This document shows positions 54,199-63,732 of a stretch of DNA of 64,000 bases, one piece after another. Source of the stretch: Planctomycetota bacterium. Lineage in GTDB: Bacteria > Planctomycetota > PLA2 > JAEUHO01. Position numbers and translations under genes: made by a program. The stretch lies in NCBI GenBank assembly GCA_965223505.1, contig CBDCWP010000030.1, positions 244,860 through 308,859 on the forward strand, read 5' to 3'. Position 1 is the first letter of the stretch; the number at the start of each line of letters is the position of its first letter. The notes under the pieces were generated by a model. It was not told the DNA's origin, ran no database searches, and worked only from the letters and a program-made list of their open reading frames with translations.

Positions 54199-54507
54199 CT
54201 ACGGCGTGGGCGGGATGGCGAAGGCGCCGGTACCGGTTCGTCCGATCGCGTTGTCGCCGCCGCAGTGGTTGGCGTAGACCTCGGTCTGCTCGCAGGGGGC
54301 TCCGCAGTCGGGGATCGAGTCGAGCTCGCTGTCGAGGCGATCGACGCCGGAGCAGACGGTGCGCTTCGCGCAGTTCCAGGAGCTCTCGACGGAGCCCGCG
54401 ACGGATCTGGCGCCGGACGCGACGTTGTCGCGGACGCAGCACACCTGCTGGCAGCCGGTACAGACGAGGAGGGCGAGAGCCAGGAACGCGATGAGGGATG
54501 TACGCAT
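54199..54507 (-). CDS. Small Cys-rich lipoprotein
   Basis: Lipobox-like 'LVCTGC' and seven further Cys residues in the mature part. Confidence 0.65.
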   Translation of the reverse strand: MRTSLIAFLALALLVCTGCQQVCCVRDNVASGARSVAGSVESSWNCAKRTVCSGVDRLDSELDSIPDCGAPCEQTEVYANHCGGDNAIGRTGTGAFAIPPTP

Positions 54508-54744: not shown

Positions 54745-54777
54745 AAAAACGGGCGGGCGCCTCGAGGCGCCCGCCCG
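54745..54777 (-). terminator. Rho-independent terminator of the 54812-55597 gene
   Basis: On the minus strand, the CGGGCGGGCGCCTCGAGGCGCCCGCCCG hairpin is followed by TTTTT. Confidence 0.75.
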
Positions 54778-54811
54778 CATGAATCGCAGTCGAGTTGAAG
54801 GGGTCCCCCCG

Positions 54812-55597
54812 CTATGCGGTCTTCTTCTCGGTCTTGGGCGTCAGCTTCCAGAGCTCACGCTGGGCCTTGGCGAGCTCGTCGAGCTCCGCACGCACGTCGG
54901 CACGCTCCTTCTTGACCTTCTCGAGCTTCTTCTCGTCGTCGGCCGCGCGCGCTTCCTTGTCGGCAAGCGTCTTCTCGGCGTTCGCGAGCTTGTCCTGCTC
55001 GGTCAGCATCTTCAGGTGGTCCTTGACGACCTTGTCGAGCTTCTCTTTCCAGAACTTGCCGGAGACCTTCTTCATCGCGCTGAAGAGGCCGCTCGCCTTG
55101 AGCTTGCTCTTCTCGACGACGGTCACCTTGGTCTTGACGGGATCGACGAGCAACATGCGCGGCACGTCTTTGCCGTGGCCGGTCAGGATCGCATCGGCTT
55201 CGACCTGCTCGGGATCCATCTTGACGGTGCGGAAGGCGCGCATGCCGAGCGCGATCTTCTCGTCCTTCAGGATGATATCGTTGATCTTGTCGATGCCTTC
55301 GCAGACCTCGGTCTCGTCGCAGACGAACACCAGGATCGGCTTGTCGGACCACTTGAGCTGCGCGTCGTCGGACGCCTCGTCTTCCGTCGCGTCCTCACCG
55401 GTGACGACGGCTACGGCCGGCTTGGTGATCGACTCGACGGTGTGCCACTGGATGGTGAGTGCGGCCATGCTGGCCGAGGAGCGACCGCTCCCCTTGCTTC
55501 CGCCTCCGCCGCATCACCCGGCTTCCGCGGGGATCGTCCCAAGGACGGCAAGTGCGGCCATCGAAAAGACGGCTACGAAGAATGATGCTCTGCGCAT
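54812..55597 (-). CDS. Secreted thioredoxin-like protein with in-frame TGA (candidate selenoprotein), paralog B
   Basis: AGGAG plus ATG 55597 gives MRRASFFVAVFSMAALAVLGTIPAEAG, then TGA (55514-55516), then CGGGGSKGSGRSSASMAALTIQW in the same frame as ORF 54812-55468. Confidence 0.72.
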
Positions 55598-55842
55598 GAA
55601 CAGCTCCTGATGCGGGGAGTTGAGATCGATCAGCGGTGTATACGTCCCAAGTGTAGCGGCTGCGCCCCCATTTCGGCCGGCAAAAGGCCATTGGGGGCCG
55701 TTTGACCGGGGTCCGATGTCCTGCTGCACAACCGCACACCGGCGCGCGAATTGAGAACGGGCGAGCGCCGAAGCGCCCGCCCGCAGGTGATGGGTAGGTC
55801 GAGAGCCCGAAAGGGGCCGCGCCCTTCTCGGACGGAGGACGG

Positions 55843-56607
55843 CTACGCGGTCTTCTTCGCCTTGGGCGTGAGCTTCCAGAGCTCGGCCTGGGCCTTCGCG
55901 AGCTTCTCGAGCTCGGCGCGGACCTCGGCGCGCTCCTTCTTGACCTTCTCGAGCTTCTTCTCGTCGTCGGCCGCGCGCGCTTCCTTGTCGGCAAGCGTCT
56001 TTTCGGCGTTCGCGAGCTGGTCCTGCTCGGTCAACATCGAAAGGTGCTCCTTGACGACCTTGTCGAGCTTTTCCTTCCAGAACTTGTTCGAAACCTTCTT
56101 CATCGCGCTGAAGAGGCCGCTCGCCTTGAGCTTGCCCTTCTCGACGACGGTGACCTTGAGCTTGACCGGATCCAAGAGGAGCATGCGCGGGACTTCCTTG
56201 CCGTTGCCCTCGAGGAACGGATCGGCGTCGACCTGGCTGGGGGTCATCTTCACGGTGCGGAACGCACGAACGCCCAGCGCGACCTTCTCGTCCTTCAGGA
56301 TGATGTCGTTGACCTTGTCGAGACCTTCGCACGCCTCGGTGTCGTCGCAGACGAAGACGAGAATCGGCTTGTCGGTCCACTTGAGCTCGGCCTCGCCGGT
56401 CTCTTCGTCGGCTGCTTCCTCACCCGTGACGACGGCCTTGGAAGGCTTGGAGATCGTCTCGACGCTCTCCCACTTGATGTTGAGGGCGGCCAAACTGGCG
56501 CCCGAACGGCCGTTGCATCACCCGGCTTCCGCGGTGATGTTGCCGACGATGGCGATCCCGAGGCCGACGATCAATGCCGCGGCGACGTACATCGATGCTC
56601 TACGCAT
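55843..56607 (-). CDS. Secreted thioredoxin-like protein with in-frame TGA (candidate selenoprotein), paralog A
   Basis: AAGGAG plus ATG 56607 gives MRRASMYVAAALIVGLGIAIVGNITAEAG, then TGA (56518-56520), then CNGRSGASLAALNIKW in the same frame as ORF 55843-56493. Confidence 0.72.
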
Positions 56608-56829
56608 TCGATTCTCCTTCTGGAACTGCGGTTACGACGCCCCAAATGGGTAGCTGCGGGGTGCAGCGCCTCCCTTGATTCGTCGGGAAATCCAATGGTC
56701 TGACGTTGAATGTATCGGAAACGATCCCCAATCTGTGGGGCCTGACGCAGGTCGAAAGTCCCTGAGGGCCGTAGTGGCGGTCTTTCGGCCCTGGACCGGC
56801 GGCCTGCGAGGTCCCGTTAGGGTTCTCGA

Positions 56830-57441
56830 ATGGCCGCGCCCGAACCCTGGAAGAAGCCCAGTCCGCTCCCCGATCCGGTCGCCACGACCGACCGGCTCGT
56901 GATCGGCTGGTACGGAGCGTCGGACGCCGAAGCGCTCCACCGGGTCGTGGCGTCGAACCGCGCCGCCCTGCTGCCCTGGTTGCCGTGGGCCGCGAAGGAG
57001 CACGGCGACGTGCGTACGAGCCGCGAGCAGATCGCCGACTTCGAGGCACAGCGCGCGTCTCCCAACTGCACCAACTTCGTCATGGCCATCTTCGATCGGG
57101 CCGGCGAGCTCGTCGGTGGAACGGGCTTCCACCTCGTCGATCGCGACGCCCACAAGGCCGACATCGGGTACTGGGTGCGCGCGGACCGGCGCCGGCAAGG
57201 ACTGTGCACCGAGGCCGTCGCTGCGCTCATCACGGCGGGCTTTGACGCCTGGCACTTCCGACGCATTCGCATCCAGTGTGCGGCGGCCAACGCGTCGTCG
57301 GTGATGGTGATCGAGAAGCTCGGGCTTCGGCGCGAGGGGCGCGAGGTGCAGGCGCGCTACGTCGAAGGTCACGGTTGGACCGACCAGCTGACGTTCGGCG
57401 TGCTTCGTGACGAGTGGGACGCGGGCCGAGGTCCCGCCTGA
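56830..57441 (+). CDS. GNAT N-acetyltransferase, RimJ/RimL type
   Basis: 'IGYWVRADRRRQGLCTEAV' and 'NASS..VIEKLG.RREG'. Confidence 0.88.
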   Translation: MAAPEPWKKPSPLPDPVATTDRLVIGWYGASDAEALHRVVASNRAALLPWLPWAAKEHGDVRTSREQIADFEAQRASPNCTNFVMAIFDRAGELVGGTGFHLVDRDAHKADIGYWVRADRRRQGLCTEAVAALITAGFDAWHFRRIRIQCAAANASSVMVIEKLGLRREGREVQARYVEGHGWTDQLTFGVLRDEWDAGRGPA

Positions 57442-57503
57442 CCGGCACGGCGCGTTCCGCGACGCCTGCAATCGTTGCTACGGTGGGCGTGTTGGGGGCA
57501 GCC

Positions 57504-59294
57504 ATGCACGAATCGCGAACGCGTCGCACCGGATGGAACGCACTTCGGACGATCGGCATCGCGTTGCCAGCGGTCGCGTTCGTCACGCTCACGCTGGGCG
57601 GGTTCGCGAACGCGGACCCCGCCGCGAAGGACCCCGCCGCGGAAGCGGCCAAGGTCGAGCTCGGCCGACGCCTGTTCTTCGATCCCAACGTGAGCCGCAG
57701 CGGCACCGTGTCGTGCGGCTCGTGCCACCTGCCGGACCACGGCTTCAGCCACCCGGACAAGACGAACCGCGACGACGACGGGACGATGACGAAGCGTCAC
57801 TCGATGACGCTGATCGACACGAAGGGCGACGGATTCCACTGGGACGGCGAGTTCAAGCACCTCGTCGATCTCGTGACGGCTCGCGTCGGCAACGCGAACG
57901 AGGTCGTGCGCATCGGCGAGGGCCGGGACGATCCGCTCCGCACCGCAAATCGAGGCGGGTACGCGCAAGCAGCAATGCTCGCCCACCGCGAGGTGGCGCG
58001 CGCGCTCAACGAGGACGGCACCTATCGCAGCGCGTTCGAGGCGGCGTTCGGCACGTCGACCGCGTTCACCGAGCGGATCGCGATCGCCATGAGCGCGTAC
58101 GTCGAGAGCCTGCGTCACACGCGCGCGCCGATCGATGCGTACCTCGACGGAGACCAGAGCGCGCTTTCGGCGCCCGCGCAGCGCGGCATGAAGCTCTTCC
58201 AGGGCGCGGCGGGCTGCAGCGAGTGCCACACCATCAAGGGCAAGAGCCCGGACTTCACGGACGGCGCCTTCCACAACACGGGGATCGCGTGGAAGGCTGG
58301 TCCGGTCGGGGATCCCGACATCAGCGTCAAGAGCGCCGACGAAGGCCGCTTCGCGTTCACCTCGAAGTCGAACGACATGCGCAGCTTCAAGACACCGAGC
58401 CTGCGCGACGTCGCCAAGCGTCCTCCGTACATGCACGACGGCTCGTTCCCGACGCTGGAAGAGGTCGTCCGGTACTACGCGTCGGTTCGCAAGACGAACC
58501 AGGACGGGCTCCTCGATGCGAAGCTGAAGTCCTTCGAGCCGACGGACCGCGACGTGGACGATCTCGTTGCGTTCCTCGAGTCGCTGTCCGGCAGCGAGCG
58601 CCCGGGCGTGGCGGACACGCCGTGGACGGCGCGTGCCGAGAACGCGGGGGTGCGCCTCGTCGATCGAACCGGCGCGCCGCTCCGCAACGTGACCGTGCGC
58701 GTGACCGGCGCCGGCGACGTCGCCTGGAAGGGCGCTTCGCCGGCCAGGGCGTTCTCTTGCACGACGGACGAGCGCGGCTGGATCGACCTGCCGGCGATCG
58801 ATCACACGCACTGGCGTATCGAAATGCCGGTGGACCGCCCGGACGTGGACGGACCATCGGCGACGGTCAAGGAGACGCTGCAACTCGCGCAGCCCACTCC
58901 GGTCTTCGGGCACCCCAGCCACCGCCCGACGCCGCGGCCGGACCGGGTGCAGGACGTCTGGATTCCCGATACGTGCGCCGCACGAACCGTGCGGCTGCCG
59001 GTGGACGGCTTCGCGCGCTTCGACGTCGATCTGCCGCGCGAGACGGTGGCACCTGACGTGCTTGCGCTCGAATCGACGGTTGACGTCGGCAAGCCGTTCC
59101 CCGCGACGCGGCTTCACAGCGTCGAGACGAAGCAGGGCAAGCGCGTGACGTACGGCGTCTGGCTGCGCGGGCTGTACCAGGAGGCGCTGCCGTTCACGTT
59201 CCAGTTGCCGGGGGGCGCGGCCGGTCTCGAGCGGTGGATCCAGCTCGACCGCGACGAGACGAACGTGGCGCGCACGTCGGCCAACAGGAAGTAG
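57504..59294 (+). CDS. Di-haem cytochrome c peroxidase/MauG-family protein with C-terminal extension
   Basis: 'LGRRLFFDP', CxxCH motifs 'CGSCH' and 'CSECH', 'FHWDG', and 'FKTPSLRDV...PYMHDG'. Confidence 0.88.
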   Translation: MHESRTRRTGWNALRTIGIALPAVAFVTLTLGGFANADPAAKDPAAEAAKVELGRRLFFDPNVSRSGTVSCGSCHLPDHGFSHPDKTNRDDDGTMTKRHSMTLIDTKGDGFHWDGEFKHLVDLVTARVGNANEVVRIGEGRDDPLRTANRGGYAQAAMLAHREVARALNEDGTYRSAFEAAFGTSTAFTERIAIAMSAYVESLRHTRAPIDAYLDGDQSALSAPAQRGMKLFQGAAGCSECHTIKGKSPDFTDGAFHNTGIAWKAGPVGDPDISVKSADEGRFAFTSKSNDMRSFKTPSLRDVAKRPPYMHDGSFPTLEEVVRYYASVRKTNQDGLLDAKLKSFEPTDRDVDDLVAFLESLSGSERPGVADTPWTARAENAGVRLVDRTGAPLRNVTVRVTGAGDVAWKGASPARAFSCTTDERGWIDLPAIDHTHWRIEMPVDRPDVDGPSATVKETLQLAQPTPVFGHPSHRPTPRPDRVQDVWIPDTCAARTVRLPVDGFARFDVDLPRETVAPDVLALESTVDVGKPFPATRLHSVETKQGKRVTYGVWLRGLYQEALPFTFQLPGGAAGLERWIQLDRDETNVARTSANRK

Positions 59295-60242
59295 TCAGGG
59301 CGCGGCGACCCAGCCGTCGCCGCGTTTGACGAACCGGTCCTCACGAAGCGTCTTCTGAGGCGCCCACGACAGCACGACCGCGCTCGCGGCGTCCAGCATG
59401 CGCGTGCCGACGTAGTGCCGTGCCGCGTTCTGGGCGTCTGCCGAGAGCCACGCGGCGCGCACCGTCCCTCCCGCGGGGCGCTCCCGCGTGACGCCGCGCG
59501 GCGCCGGTGACGGCCGGTCGGGAAACACCCCGCGATGAAGCGCGAGCACACGCGCGAGCTCTTCGATGGGTCGTGCATGGTCTTCGACGTGCAAGTCGAT
59601 GTACCGGTCGTTCCATGCGGCGTACCCGCCGCCGCGCCGGACGACCAACAGCGCGGCGGACTGCCGTCCCCGTTTGTCGCCGCCGGCCGCTTGCCCCGCG
59701 GCCAGCGCCGCGACCAGGCGTTCGGGCAACTCCGCCTCGCTCTCTTCGAACGCTCGCGCCATGGCGTTCACGACCGTCTCACCGGCGAGGATGTTGCCTT
59801 GGCAACAGTACCCGTCCCCGATCTTGTGACCCGCCCATTCGTTGTTCCTCGATCCCGTGTAGGCGCAGGACACACCGCGCGCGTCGACGACACCGAGCTG
59901 ACGACGATCGCGTCCCGCGTCCTCGCGTGTGAGCGTCGCGACGACGTCGGTGGCATCGACGCCCACGTCCAGCAGCGCCAATCCGCGCGGACCGTAGGTC
60001 GTGTTGGCGTACGCCTGCGTCGCAATCGCGCCCACGTCCGCGCGCGCGAAGGGCACGACGGCGCCGACGCCGAGGAACTTGCTCTGCACCGCCACACCCA
60101 GGTCGCCGGTGTCGGGATCGCGCGCCACGATCGAGAACGTCGCGACGGGACCGGCGTCTCGCGGCGGGCTCGCACGTTCGTCCCCGCCGCAGCCGGCTAC
60201 GCACAACACCACGAGAACGAGCAACGAAGGGCGATGGACCAT
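59295..60242 (-). CDS. DUF1028 (Ntn-hydrolase-like) lipoprotein
   Basis: Lipobox 'VAGC', 'TFSIVARD...GVAVQS', 'QGNIL' and 'GGDKRGRQSAAL'. Confidence 0.85.
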   Translation of the reverse strand: MVHRPSLLVLVVLCVAGCGGDERASPPRDAGPVATFSIVARDPDTGDLGVAVQSKFLGVGAVVPFARADVGAIATQAYANTTYGPRGLALLDVGVDATDVVATLTREDAGRDRRQLGVVDARGVSCAYTGSRNNEWAGHKIGDGYCCQGNILAGETVVNAMARAFEESEAELPERLVAALAAGQAAGGDKRGRQSAALLVVRRGGGYAAWNDRYIDLHVEDHARPIEELARVLALHRGVFPDRPSPAPRGVTRERPAGGTVRAAWLSADAQNAARHYVGTRMLDAASAVVLSWAPQKTLREDRFVKRGDGWVAAP

Positions 60243-60317
60243 GGCGCGCTCCACAATCGGGGGGCACGAGATCGCCCCGCTGATTACCATTCTGCGCCCA
60301 CATGGAGGTCGATCGCA

Positions 60318-63300
60318 ATGCAGCCCGCCCGACTGTTCGCCCTGCTCGCACTCACTGTCGTCCCGATCCTCGGCGCGTCCGCCGCGTCGGCCGACCAGGC
60401 GTCGGAGACGTTGCTCCTGCAGTCGCCGACGATCTCGGAAGACCACATCGTCTTCGTCTATGCGCGCGATCTCTGGGTCGTCGGTCGGGAAGGCGGCGAC
60501 GCGCGCCGCCTGACGAGCCACGTCGGCAGCGAGTCGAACCCGCACCTTAGCCCTGACGGCACGATGGTGGCGTTCAGCGGCGCCTACGACGGCAACACCG
60601 ACGTCTACGTGATGCCGATCGACGGCGGCGTTCCGCAGCGACTCACCTGGCATCCGGCAAGCGACACGGTCCAGGGCTGGCATCCGGACGGCAAACGCGT
60701 GCTGTTCTCGAGCGCGCGGGGCGGTCGGCCGGGGCGAACCCTCTACCTCGTCTCGGACGAGGGCGGCATGCCGCGCGAGCTGAAGATCCCGCGCGTCGGG
60801 CACGCGTCCTACAACGACACGGGCGACCGCATCGCGTACACGCCGATGAACGACGCGTTTCGCTCGTGGAAGCGCTACCGCGGCGGCCTGACGCCGCCGG
60901 TGTGGATCTACGACCCGGCAACGCACGGGATCGAGCAGATCCCGCACGTGAACGCTTCGGACACGTTCCCGTGCTGGATCGGCGACGACGTCTACTTCGC
61001 GTCCGATCGCACGAACCGCATGGAGATCTGGAAGTTCACGCCGGGCAGCAAGGCGCCGGTGCAGATCACGAAGTCCAGGAGCTTCGACGTGCGCTCGATG
61101 TCGTCGGGCGCCGGTGTGCTGGCGTACGAGCAGGCGGGCGCGCTGCATGTCTACGACCCGGAGAGCGGCTCGAGCGAACGGCTGCGCATCACGGTCCGCT
61201 CGGACGGCCTGCACAGCATCCCGCGCTGGCAGACGGTTCGCGGCGGCGTGCGCAACGCCGCGATCTCGCCGAACGGAAAGCGAGCGGCGTTCGAAGCGCG
61301 CGGCGAGATCATCACCGTCCCGCGCGAGCACGGCGCGCCGCGCAACATCACCGACTCGCCCGGCGTCCACGACCGCGACCCGGTCTGGAGTCCCGACGGC
61401 GCCACGATCGCCTGGTTCAGTGACGCCGGCGGTGAGTACCGGCTGGCGGTGCGAGATCGCCGCGGACGAGAGCCGATCACGTACCACGCGCTCGGCGGGG
61501 CGGGCTTCTACCACGACCCCGTGTGGAGCCCGGACGGCAAGCACATCCTGTTCAGCGACAAGGGCAACCGCCTCGCGTACATCACGCTCGAGACCGGCAA
61601 GGTGACGCCGATCAGCCGGACGCAGGGGGCGCTCGGCGTGTGGCGTCCGTTCGGCGTGTGGTCGCCCGACAGCAAGTGGATCGCGTACGAGAAGAAGAAC
61701 CCGAACACGGCCTACAACGGCGTCGATCTGTTCGAGGTCGCGACCGGCAATACGACGCCGCTGACCGACGCGTTCAGCAACGCCGACTCGCCCACGTTCT
61801 CCCGGGACGGCGAGCACCTGTTCTTCCGCGCGTCCGTCAACAGCGGTCCGCGCAGCTTCGGGCTGGACCTGTCCACGTCGACACTGCGCACGCCGAGCAG
61901 CAGTCTCTACTTCGTCGTGCTGAAGAAGGACGGCAAGAACCCGCTTGCGGCGCGCAGTGACGACGAGGAGCCCAAGCCGAAGAAGGACCAGAAGAAGGAC
62001 GCGCCCAAGAAGGACGCGGACAAGAAGGACCCGGACAAGAAGAAAGAGAAGAAGGACGACGAGGACGCGCCCGGGAAGAAAGACGACGAGGGCGACGACG
62101 AGAAGGACGACGAGAAGAAGCAGCCCGAGGACGAGGCGAAGCCCGCCGCGAAGGAAGACGACGAGGGCGCGAAGGACGACGAAGCGGGCTCCAAGGAGGC
62201 CGCAGAGAAGCCCTCCATCGACGTCGAGGACATCGACCAGCGCATTCTCGCACTCCCGGCGGCCGGCTCCGGCACGTTCTACAACCTGCAGTGCTCGCAC
62301 GGCAAGCTGCTCTATCTCCACCGCCCGACGAGCGGCGGCGGGTCGTCGATGAAGGGCTTCGACTTCAAGAGCCGCAAGGCCACGGACGTCATGAGCGGCG
62401 TGAGCGCATTCGAGGTCTCGGCGACGGGCAAGCACGTTCTCGTCCGTGTCGGCTCGCGTTGGTCGGTCGTGAACGAGTCCGGCAAGGGCAAGAAGGACTT
62501 CGGCATCGACAACGTCAAGGTGCGCGTGGTGCCGGAGCTCGAGTGGGCCGCAGATCCTGCGCGAGACCTGGCGCATCCAGCGCGACTACTTCTACGACTC
62601 GAACATGCACGGCGTCGATTGGAACGCCATGTGGGAGCGCTGGAGCCCCTTCCTGCCGCATGTCAGGCACCGCAGCGACCTCTCGGTGCTCCAGAGTGAG
62701 CTGATGGGCGAGCTGTGCTGCGGCCACGAGTACGTGAGCGGCGGAGACACGCCCCGCGCGCCGTCCGGCAACAATGTCGGGCTCCTGGGCGCGGACCTCG
62801 AGATCCACAACGGCCGCTTCCGCGTCGCGCGCATCTACAAGGGCCAGAACTGGAACACGCGGTTGCGCGCGCCGCTCACGGAGCCGGGGGTGGACGTCAA
62901 CGTCGGCGACTACCTGATCGCGGTGAACGGCGAGGACATCACGTACAACGCGAACCTCTACCAGGCGTTCGAAGGCATGGCGAACCAACGCGTCGAGCTC
63001 ACCCTGTCGGCGACGGCGGACGGCTCGGAACCGCGCACGACGACCGTCGTTCCGCTCTCGAACGACGGGACACTGCGGCGTCTCGCCTGGATCGAAGGCA
63101 ACCGGCGCAAGGTCGACGAGCTCTCGAACGGCCGCTTGGCGTACGTGTACATGCCGAACACCGGGCGCGGCGGTCTCGCGGCGTTCGACCGCGACTACTT
63201 CAGCCAGCTCGACAAGGAAGGCCTGGTGCTCGACGAGCGCTACAACGGCGGCGGCAAGGTCGCCGACTACGTCGTGGAGATCCTCGACCGCGAGCCCATC

Positions 63301-63732
63301 TGCTACTGGATGAACCGCGAGGGCTGGCTCGGGCGGACGCCGTTCGGCACGATGACGGGCCCCAAGGTGATGATCATCAACGCGTACGCGGGCTCCGGCG
63401 GCGACGCGATGCCGTGGATGTTCCGCAAGCTCGGGCTCGGTAAGCTCGTCGGTACGCGCACATGGGGCGGGCTCGTCGGCATCTCGGGGTACCCGCCGCT
63501 GATGGACGGCGGCAGCGTGACGGCCGCGAACTTCGGCATCATGGACACGGACGGCAACTGGGTCGTTGAGAACGTGGGCGTCGCGCCCGACATCGAGGTG
63601 TTCCAGACGCCGAAGGGCATGCTCGACGGCGGCGATCCGCAGCTCGAGCGCGCGGTGCGGGAAGCACTGAAGATGCTCGAAACCCACGTACCCCCGAAGA
63701 AGCCGGAATACAAGCCGCCGAGCAAGCGGTAG
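60318..63732 (+). CDS. Tricorn-like S41 protease (PD40 propellers, PDZ, S41); apparent 1-nt frameshift at about 62545-62547
   Basis: Signal peptide, repeated 'P.WSPDG', 'WKRYRGG', 'RYNGGG', 'AGSGGD' and 'GTRTWGG'. Removing one G gives EWPQILRETWRIQRDYFYD, joining the two ORFs. Confidence 0.9.

Follow-up and report, generated by a model that had tools for sequence, protein, structure and literature searches.

A tandem pair of planctomycete genes predicted to encode exported selenoproteins with an N-terminal Sec-Cys dyad

A TGA codon that stands at the same place in two neighbouring paralogous genes may be an ordinary stop, a lesion, or a codon that is translated, and which of these applies is the question raised by a locus in a 64,000-nucleotide stretch of a Planctomycetota genome (GenBank assembly GCA_965223505.1, contig CBDCWP010000030.1, positions 244,860 to 308,859), referred to here as the window. 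The two genes, A and B, lie in tandem on its minus strand, and an initial annotation had proposed that they encode secreted thioredoxin-like paralogues in which the TGA is read as selenocysteine (Sec, or U in motifs) next to a Cys. Sequence comparison makes it highly likely that genes A and B are real, exported selenoproteins of one conserved family, and both TGAs very probably encode Sec. Translation would start at an ATG preceded by a Shine-Dalgarno (SD) motif (55597 or 56607), the first 26-28 residues would serve as a Sec-pathway (secretion) signal peptide that is cut after A-E-A, and the UGA two codons past the cut would be read as Sec by SelB and Sec-tRNA(Sec), with SelB recruited by an in-frame hairpin 22-27 nt past the UGA. 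The mature protein would then begin Gly-Sec-Cys, and this dyad would be joined to a thioredoxin (Trx)-fold domain plus helical hairpin by a linker that is short in gene B and Gly-rich and seven residues longer in gene A.

Two tandem genes with a conserved in-frame TGA

Gene A, taken as a full read-through coding sequence, occupies positions 54812..55597 on the minus strand and comprises 261 codons plus TAG, from the ATG at 55597 to the stop at 54812-54814, with an SD-like AGGAG (55604..55608) 6 nt 5' of the ATG. Its codons 1-26 (55520..55597), ending in PAEA, encode a predicted signal peptide with a basic MRR, an uncharged hydrophobic run and an A-x-A motif (MRRASFFVAVFSMAALAVLGTIPAEA, followed by G). 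The frame runs as MRRASFFVAVFSMAALAVLGTIPAEAG-TGA-C-GGGGSKGSGRSSASM, in which the putative Sec codon TGA (55514-55516, codon 28) and the Cys codon TGC (55511-55513), together 55511..55516, give Sec28-Cys29. Gene B is laid out in the same way at 55843..56607 on the minus strand (254 codons plus TAG; ATG 56607, TAG 55843-55845), with the SD motif AAGGAG (56614..56619) also 6 nt 5' of the ATG, a signal peptide predicted from sequence features in codons 1-28 (56524..56607, ending in TAEA; MRRASMYVAAALIVGLGIAIVGNITAEA, followed by G), and the frame MRRASMYVAAALIVGLGIAIVGNITAEAG-TGA-C-NGRSGASL, where TGA 56518-56520 (codon 30) and TGC 56515-56517, together 56515..56520, give Sec30-Cys31. Signal peptidase I (SPase I) would presumably cut after A-E-A in both genes. 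The arrangement described in the initial annotation (SD motif, ATG, signal peptide ending AEA before G, TGA, TGC, and a long open reading frame, ORF) is present in both paralogues, and the ORFs called with translation table 11 indeed start at ATG 55468 in gene A and TTG 56493 in gene B.

Apart from one internal TGA each, the two genes have no stops or frameshifts, and they match the family profile at positions 1-252 (gene A, E 4.5e-94, 1 TGA) and 1-251 (gene B, E 1.2e-92, 1 TGA). Their read-through proteins are 76% identical. At the DNA level, the bodies (about 220 amino acids) are 85% identical, and a separate 24-nt island of 96% identity lies over ...GAAGCCGGGTGATGC, flanked by signal-peptide and linker DNA for which no alignment between the genes was obtained, bearing out the claim that the TGA and the Cys were kept while their surroundings diverged. 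Both TGAs are covered by contigs of four public runs (one study) with zero differing letters, although this agreement is not independent because the runs may share a source sample with the window assembly.

Homologous loci were read directly from genomes with stops read through, the copies being recovered by tblastn. The family was matched in 36 of 41 related genomes, and nearly all strong rows have exactly one TGA. This TGA stands directly after a signal-peptide-like N-terminus in 65 of the 66 copies recovered from the 36 genomes, the one copy without it (L062) reading ...VEA-H-C; such recurrence goes well beyond chance. Among the 65 copies, the dyad is U-C in 37 and C-U in 25, and there is one copy each with U-G-U, U-U and U alone. 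In all types, the dyad lies one residue past a small-x-small motif (A-E-A/G-U-C, A-S-G/E-C-U, A-Q-A/Q-C-U), a placement from which SPase I would leave Sec at mature position 2 or 3. The upstream ORF is in frame in every copy and ends one to two codons past this cleavage motif; it is signal-peptide-like by a simple rule test in 62 of the 65 copies, and its start has an SD-like motif 5-16 nt on the 5' side in 55 of them. The residues between the TGA and the supposed downstream start (G-R-S-x-A-S) are conserved, and the tether between dyad and body is variable and Gly-rich, ranging from 5 to more than 40 residues. Homologues aligned at this site thus keep the upstream signal-peptide ORF in frame and have TGA or, in rare full-length forms, Cys, in line with the initial annotation.

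Fourteen rows for which the search had given no stop were refetched. Six of them (L051, L054, L055, L056, L057, and L061) have the TGA upstream of the aligned part, with longer Gly-rich linkers; two lack it, L062 having Cys and L064 neither TGA nor Cys; and six (L052, L053, L058, L059, L060, and L063) gave no readable N-terminus. In distant copies from other families of the phylum, the TGA follows the signal peptide in 17 of 20, in motifs that include G-U-C, Q-C-U-G, U-U, G-U-GGGR-C, C-G-U, and C-A-H-U. The three distant copies without it read Q-CGGCC, Q-CKGC, and G-W-C, the last being one base from TGA. In that copy (L129, G120 contig C21), ...AKG-W-C-GGGRS is encoded with TGG, and a similar copy (L131, G067) reads ...AKG-U-C-GGG; the TGG reflects either an error or the replacement of Sec by Trp through a single base.

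Two adjacent UGA codons (U-U) occur in L055, L057, L082, L133, L146, and L147, and U-G-U occurs in L024; each of these members has a single strong G[G/U]-loop hairpin 3' of the UGAs. The source genome has a third copy of the family (L061:307-1113, contig C34, 241154-241909, plus strand), which is of the C-U type, reads ...YAKTVG-C-U-GISPASSAVLNKAW, has its own GCC-AGU-UC-GGC hairpin, and is about 36-41% identical to genes A and B. Tandem or closely spaced copies are common (L026, L028, L030, and L031; genomes G067, G120, G256, G303, and G313), and tandem pairs often consist of a short-linker and a long Gly-rich-linker copy, like genes B and A.

Decoding of the TGA

A hairpin of the Sec insertion sequence (SECIS) type, as expected for recoding of UGA, was found past the TGA in the family, with covariation, and the candidates in both genes fit the published consensus. 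The bacterial SECIS model specifies an N1-G-[G/U]-N-N2 element in a loop of 3-9 nt on a stem of at least 4 bp, at a spacing of 16-37 nt and with a folding energy of -7.5 kcal/mol or lower (PMC13188914). The family loop A-G-U-N-U fits this element, and the family spacing of 16-27 nt lies within the published range (PMC13188914). The alignment used for the hairpin contains 47 of 48 distinct AGT-anchored short-linker sequences (L031:2582-2641 was omitted for its long linker). GCCAGU..GGC is invariant across these 47 copies, which gives a hairpin top of GCC-AGU-N-UGGC, and RNAalifold predicts the hairpin from the alignment. In the specified 8-pair helix, 85.9% of the cells are paired; sliding the 3' partner by 1-3 columns lowers this to 30.9-42.3%. 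Pair 24-36, which joins two codon wobble positions, is GC in 21, CG in 16, AU in 2, UA in 1, GU in 2, and UG in 1; this compensation is synonymous, and hence acts at the RNA level. Of 62 anchored copies, 49 use AGT for the Ser in the loop, a codon that accounts for 3.9% of Ser codons across the genome's long open frames. Further, CCAGUNUGG lies 3' of 46 of the 65 family TGAs but of 0 of 3000 background TGAs, and a strict scan for contiguous stems passed 51 of the 65 family copies compared with 354 of 2997 random genomic TGAs.

In gene B, the candidate SECIS (56484..56503, minus strand) has eight pairs with one bulged C and an A-GUU-U top, with its loop 22 nt past the UGA (-12.9 kcal/mol). In gene A, the candidate SECIS (55476..55493, minus strand) is a 7-bp stem, GGGGAGC/GCUCCUC, with a GGUC loop, 27 nt past the UGA (-10.7 kcal/mol), and it sits within a 7-codon insertion specific to this gene. 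A relic of the family hairpin, CGGCC-AGCAU-GGCCG, in which AGC replaces AGT, remains in gene A (55462..55476, minus strand), displaced to about 43 nt from the UGA because of that insertion. The other long-linker copies that were folded (L030b and L031b) have an extra hairpin at the canonical distance, as in gene A. The new hairpin in gene A is exactly the behaviour that a distance-constrained recoding element predicts.

The source genome (5.15 Mb, 44 contigs, 92.5% complete) was checked for selA, selB, selC, and selD, and all four are present above curated cut-offs. The tRNA-Sec scored 69.2 bits (cut-off 47) and was reported by ARAGORN as tRNA-SeC with anticodon tca, SelB scored 335.7 bits (cut-off 242.25), SelA 507.2 bits (cut-off 267.9), and SelD, with one in-frame TGA inside, 338.1 bits (cut-off 125). 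The selD gene (L018, contig C8, 38315-39232) lies directly 3' of selA (C8:36851-38236). Reassignment of TGA across the genome is excluded, because the codon serves as a normal stop close by: the GNAT, SDF, and PD40 genes of the window end in TGA, and the seven Pfam-matched neighbouring frames that were checked have it nowhere inside. Among the stops of the long open frames of the genome (n = 4250), 2219 are TGA, 1801 TAG, and 230 TAA, so that TGA accounts for about half.

Protein databases hold the family mostly in shortened form. A search of 5.8 billion clustered proteins returned 72 homologues of 150-227 amino acids, none covering more than 84% of the read-through query, and therefore all 72 lack the signal peptide and the Sec site. 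The truncation by gene callers that had been anticipated is thus seen in 72 of 72 similar-length database homologues, which are called without the N-terminal part. When 1.84 billion cluster representatives (clusters at 50% identity) were searched exhaustively with the profile, 660 matched at E<=1e-3, 408 at <=1e-10, and 92 at <=1e-30. About 36 of the best 150 of these start with residue 1 at profile position 35, a signature of truncation, and 11 of the best 150 match from the first 12 profile positions, all 11 with a signal peptide and then Cys at the TGA site. The Cys forms read AG-CCC-GRS, G-CGCC-GRS, G-CACC-SRS, G-CSSC, G-CEHC, and D-CGC, and further ones H-C-D, D-C-D, H-C-P, G-CP...GCP...GCP, and Q-CGGGCC. 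Cys also stands at the Sec site in L062, L128, and L130, the exceptions being L129 (Trp) and L064 (neither). The Cys forms are a small minority and are often packed with Cys.

Alternative to the decoding of the TGA as Sec, each gene might be two ORFs, an upstream one of 27-29 codons that ends at an ordinary TGA and a cytoplasmic protein translated from ATG 55468 or TTG 56493. All 72 similar-length database homologues are called from such a downstream start, as are the roughly 36 profile matches that begin at profile position 35. However, at the rival start, an L/M/V codon seven residues before an invariant Trp, 27 of 62 copies lack ATG, GTG and TTG (16 have CTG there and 11 a codon that is no start), and an SD-like tetramer precedes this codon in 2 of 62, in contrast to the upstream ATG (55 of 65). 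The first base of this codon is free to vary because the codon sits in the hairpin loop. Moreover, TGA is the supposed stop in each of the 65 copies even though only about half of the long open frames end in it, the supposed upstream ORF stays in frame, looks like a signal peptide in 62 of 65 and ends just past a cleavage motif, G-R-S-x-A-S is conserved although it would lie between stop and start, and the Cys forms are called at full length with the same signal peptide; we consider the two-ORF arrangement very unlikely. Read-through of the UGA without Sec, whether by near-cognate Trp, Cys or Gly, by a suppression signal or by lineage-wide reassignment, is highly improbable. The TGG of L129 where a similar copy has TGA would suit it, and the hairpin could in principle stimulate generic read-through, but TGA is a normal stop nearby and absent from the interior of seven neighbouring frames, hairpin loop and spacing match the SelB-type consensus, the TGA-less homologues have Cys (11 of 11 full-length matches plus three loci), and the genome has a complete Sec machinery.

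Broken genes, or a sequence or assembly error in decaying paralogues, have a negligible probability and were rejected as contradicted by the comparative data: tandem duplicates do often decay, and both stops lie near the 5' end, but the TGA recurs in all but one of the 66 copies (36 genomes) and in 17 of the 20 distant ones, no further stops or frameshifts are present, and the run contigs agree at both TGAs. It is also scarcely credible that the proteins are lipoproteins in which the Cys or Sec after the signal peptide is the lipidated +1 residue and anchors them in the membrane. C-U type members (...A-[TSVI]-G-G-C-U...) resemble a lipobox, and one homologue is named 'outer membrane murein-binding lipoprotein Lpp' by one source, a name that most likely reflects the coiled-coil tail. 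The usual lipobox rule is [LVI][ASTVI][GAS]C, with which Glu at -3 or Glu/Gln at -1 is incompatible. The window genes read A-E-A-G before U, with Glu at -3, other members have Glu or Gln at -1 (S-G-E-C, A-Q-A-Q-C), and every type has, one residue upstream, an A-x-A or small-x-small site that suits SPase I. The lipoprotein reading was rejected because A-E-A-G-U-C, like the members with E/Q at -1, departs from the lipobox.

Several observations weigh against the reading of genes A and B as selenoproteins. ATG, GTG or TTG does stand at the rival start in 35 of 62 copies (ATG 20, TTG 9, GTG 6), including gene A (ATG) and gene B (TTG), and because of these codons the two genes may give a minor, shorter cytoplasmic product. 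The hairpin of gene B failed the strict contiguous-stem scan, only because of its bulge, and whole-region folding energies are not better than those of shuffles (z -1.22 and +0.46), a comparison that is uninformative in GC-rich DNA. The covariation score of the SECIS alignment, 0.302 against a shuffled mean of 0.113, was reached by 0 of 500 shuffles; however, only the slid control and the wobble-wobble compensation carry weight, because the shuffles ignore relatedness. SelA was found in 41 of the 43 sampled genomes with a TGA-bearing family copy, related genomes in this count not being independent, and the other two, G004 (92% complete, 340 contigs) and G096 (90%, 410 contigs), have TGA copies in genomes where SelA was not found. 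The co-occurrence is weakly discriminating in any case, SelA being widespread in the phylum (221 of the 301 genomes sampled).

Fold and possible function of the Sec tip

The body had been described as a Trx fold with a coiled-coil tail, and the predicted structure agrees, having a Trx fold and a helical tail. AlphaFold2 was run on a 62-row alignment and gave for gene B a model with a predicted local distance difference test (pLDDT) score of 87.9 and a predicted template-modelling (pTM) score of 0.80, with a helix at residues 7-16, low confidence only up to residue 30, and 85-96 right after the dyad. From this model and the structural matches, the Trx-fold domain is predicted to span residues ~40-180 (56068..56490, minus strand), followed by a Lys/Glu-rich C-terminal hairpin of helices 181-211 and 216-243 (55879..56067, minus strand; pLDDT 96-98). 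The best VIA-align match is 1vrs_D, the C-terminal (gamma) domain of DsbD (Z 11.5, root-mean-square deviation 2.4 A, 105 residues), followed by 3f9u_B, a DsbD-like domain (Z 11.3), and many thioredoxins at Z 9-10.5. The top Foldseek matches are likewise DsbD-gamma, ERp19, and AGR2/3 (1uc7_A, 1sen, and 3ph9_B), at E 4e-3 to 1e-2 (1uc7_A, 4.2e-3). By sequence, a profile search of PDB chains gave nothing significant (best E 0.022, a coiled coil; best Trx-fold chain E 0.033), and Pfam returned only coiled-coil noise on both read-through proteins, with no Trx family, PF13899 included, even at E<=1. PF13899 (Thioredoxin_7) is precomputed on 2 of the 72 homologues.

Invariant or near-invariant positions of the family are U30, C31, G33, S35, A37, W46, P81, F116, D129, M169, and D196, and P140 and R141 are present in 55 and 54 of 62 members, respectively; we take the P140-R141 motif to occupy the cis-Pro loop position. 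C87-x5-C93 of gene B (56329..56349, minus strand), like C93-x5-C99 of gene A at the Trx active-site loop position (55301..55321, minus strand), falls by the secondary structure of the model in the loop between the central strand and the next helix, which we take to be the CxxC site of classical thioredoxins. In the window genes, no CxxC (or UxxC/CxxU) is present at the N-terminus of the helix after the central strand, where they have C-x5-C. Of 62 members, 13 have this pair, and the loop is free of Cys in 44. Only one chalcogen site was found across the whole family, namely the N-terminal Sec dyad, where Sec usually has a Cys or another Sec beside it.

Given that the proteins are selenoproteins, we tentatively favour an extracytoplasmic selenol/thiol redox centre, because of the fold, the CxxC-like Cys forms, and the conserved P-R motif, and regard it as quite possible by analogy. 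The tether would carry a cycling vicinal selenenylsulfide (in U-U members, a diselenide), the CxxC-less Trx scaffold would offer P140-R141 as a docking surface, and in genes A and B the local C-x5-C pair may be the resolving partner. The initial annotation had envisaged electron transfer from the dyad to the C-x5-C site; as a general mechanism this is not supported, the pair being found in 13 of 62 members, but it is conceivable for these two paralogues, and a U-C to C-x5-C relay limited to a subclade that includes this window is possible. Four points count against the redox centre or against the model behind it. Cys was substituted for Sec in the AlphaFold2 model; 11 of 62 members have no Cys anywhere in the body; L056 and L136 have a single Sec with no second chalcogen nearby; and no conserved redox partner (e.g., DsbD/CcdA) was found near the family genes in the flanking-ORF surveys. 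Single-Sec members and Cys-free bodies do not fit an obligatory intramolecular redox pair, and single-chalcogen members may use dimers or external thiols.

The principal competing explanation of function is that the Sec/Cys tip ligates a soft metal or metalloid (Hg, Cu(I), Cd, As, or Se itself), the protein being a periplasmic carrier, scavenger or sensor whose Trx-like domain and helical hairpin serve docking or oligomerisation. In the accessible text of a preprint by Haft and Gwadz, CU/CC dipeptides, which are rare in selenoproteins, are argued to be marks of heavy-metal handling, with SaoB, SaoC, SaoL, MerT forms, and the N-terminal PCUGP of HgcA as examples of metal sites, and Cys-packed non-Sec homologues are likewise described there for CU families (bioRxiv 10.1101/2022.07.06.499078). 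The Cys forms of the present family are similarly Cys-packed (CCC, CGCC, CACC, CGGCC, GCP x3), a dyad 2-3 residues from a free amino terminus on a variable Gly-rich tether would suit capture, and most members lack a body Cys pair with which to resolve a redox cycle. However, no conserved metal-resistance or metal-transport genes were found beside the family in the flanking-ORF surveys, none of the NCBIfam SAO, Hgc or Mer models matched, and CxxC-type Cys forms (CSSC, CEHC) on a Trx scaffold are equally typical of redox proteins; we consider a metal-binding tip rather unlikely.

Whichever chemistry applies, the family could represent a phylum-wide class of exported 'selenium-tipped' proteins, in which the reactive centre is built from the first mature residues, outside any fold, on a tether of tunable length, and would act in trans on a thioredoxin scaffold that gave up its own CxxC, a possibility that we regard as doubtful though worth stating. 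Should this hold, it would amount to a novel way of building a chalcogen redox or metal site and would include genetically encoded vicinal diselenides, specified by adjacent UGAs with one SECIS and decoded 27-30 codons after initiation.

Known systems, distribution and gene neighbourhood

Trx-fold selenoproteins catalogued in the accessible part of a 2026 review include a Prx-like thiol:disulfide oxidoreductase together with a thiol:disulfide interchange protein and a DsbG-like protein, all UxxC, as well as Trx-like Sec.1/Sec.2 and SaoT (PMC13188914). The present family shares with them the Trx fold, a G[G/U] hairpin at 16-37 nt, Sec/Cys homologue pairs, and truncation by gene callers. By contrast, its Sec lies outside the fold, 2-3 residues from the predicted mature N-terminus and not in a U/CxxC/U motif, its fold has lost the CxxC (44 of 62 with no loop Cys), its Sec adjoins Cys or Sec, and none of their Pfam or NCBIfam models matches it.

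Animal thioredoxin reductase (TrxR) has a C-terminal Gly-Cys-Sec-Gly redox arm. The likeness to this arm lies in a Gly-flanked vicinal Cys-Sec on a flexible terminal extension, and CU-type members (25 of 65) even read G-C-U-G, whereas the window genes have the reversed order, G-U-C. Unlike the TrxR arm, the dyad is N-terminal, would be exposed by signal-peptide cleavage, and belongs to a bacterial, predicted extracytoplasmic protein with an in-ORF SECIS; a flavoprotein/pyridine-nucleotide disulfide oxidoreductase domain is also lacking (no Pfam match). Homology to the TrxR arm is excluded, and the analogy is one of design only. Compared with SaoB, SaoC, SaoL and the PCUGP of HgcA, as portrayed in the accessible text of the preprint, the family has in common adjacent Cys and Sec and extra Cys in non-Sec homologues, an annotated start downstream of the UGA as in HgcA, and exposure outside the cytoplasm as in SaoB and SaoC (bioRxiv 10.1101/2022.07.06.499078). 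Those CU-motif families, however, are of unrelated folds, come from anaerobic Firmicutes, Desulfobacterota and spirochaetes, and have conserved metal-handling neighbourhoods, which were not found for this family, and the list of known CU selenoproteins in the same accessible text holds no exported family with a dyad at the mature N-terminus (bioRxiv 10.1101/2022.07.06.499078). The DsbD gamma/Thioredoxin_7 group (ERp19, AGR2/AGR3, DsbH) provides the best structural matches and is extracytoplasmic, as is predicted here; unlike that group, the family shows insignificant sequence similarity to it, no CxxC and no membrane domain, and has an added helical hairpin and Sec tip.

A search of NCBIfam release 20.0 (June 2026), including its SAO, Hgc, KCU-star, UXX-star and Tso models, gave coiled-coil noise only (E 0.018 or worse); the curated selenoprotein models that the 2026 review cites are part of this release (PMC13188914). 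The absence of any Pfam or NCBIfam match agrees with the initial annotation, which had not recognised the proteins as a described family. Planctomycetes and signal peptides have 0 occurrences each in the accessible texts of the 2026 review and of the BSepDB and deep-Sep papers, whose family tables and supplements were outside the scope, and the searchable literature contains no description of an exported N-terminal Sec-Cys family in Planctomycetes. A paper on a Porphyra planctomycete, in its accessible part, identifies selenoprotein candidates by homology to known ones. As far as the visible literature goes, the family is apparently undescribed. In the accessible text of deep-Sep, its authors state that it may miss selenoproteins without Cys-containing homologues (PMC12013277), and the present family may have been overlooked because methods that depend on Cys homologues miss it, its Cys forms being rare.

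The genes would thus belong to a large selenoprotein family that is systematically truncated by current annotation and absent from searchable catalogues, and the selenoproteomes of Planctomycetota would therefore be undercounted. Its design would be unusual, with Sec at position 2-3 of a secreted mature protein, beside Cys or Sec, on a Trx fold devoid of CxxC, and would give the Cys-Sec arm of TrxR a natural parallel in bacteria; the U-U members, if decoded, would be natural examples of tandem UGA decoding by one bacterial SECIS. Among 301 genomes sampled across Planctomycetota, 69 contain the family (52 of 191 high-quality genomes), and 43 of the 301 have TGA-bearing family rows. A related-locus search with a 14-row alignment returned 16 loci, all 16 from metagenome-assembled genomes of Planctomycetota.

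Next to genes A and B lie a divergent GNAT gene, a small Cys-rich ORF on the downstream side and, both on the plus strand, upstream of and divergent from gene B, a di-haem cytochrome c peroxidase/MauG-like gene (57414-59294) and a tricorn-type protease (PD40, PDZ_Tricorn, S41; 59535-63732). The strand opposite the protease frame has a DUF1028 match (59295-62576), and as the two frames overlap, one of them is probably spurious. The small ORF (54199-54507, minus strand), directly 3' of gene A, encodes 102 amino acids with a lipoprotein-like signal ending in LLVCTGC and 11 Cys, and has no Pfam match. Weak relatives of it were found by tblastn beside family genes only in L030 and L113, with a similar ORF seen by eye in L034, and for this narrow recurrence it was dropped as a candidate partner. 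When flanking ORFs from 57 loci were clustered, the outcome was mainly shadow frames of the family gene, and Pfam matches for 108 flanking ORFs from five loci gave local synteny only with a PD40/tricorn-type protease, a GNAT and a TPR protein, which is confined to close relatives.

Downstream of the coding regions, a terminator-like hairpin of 13 pairs followed by a T run lies 34 nt past the stop of gene A (54749..54778, minus strand), and past the stop of gene B there is a GC-rich hairpin that lacks a T run. Outside the window, contig C38 of the source genome (plus strand, offset 23615) is the sole other place in this genome with TGA and then CCAGTNTGG in an open frame; it reads ...ELVRMIPT-TGA-DSCGGQFGAPKDK... 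and may be a further selenoprotein candidate or chance. The module of Trx-like domain plus helices is also found, without a TGA, inside large multidomain proteins, including ORFs of 700-950 amino acids in other genomes. In the source genome, for example, a 1598-amino-acid protein (L148:2589-7385, contig C40, minus strand) is arranged as Ser/Thr protein kinase, Glucodextran_B, the module, and FGE-sulfatase, with the Trx-like plus helical module at residues ~629-816 and no TGA.

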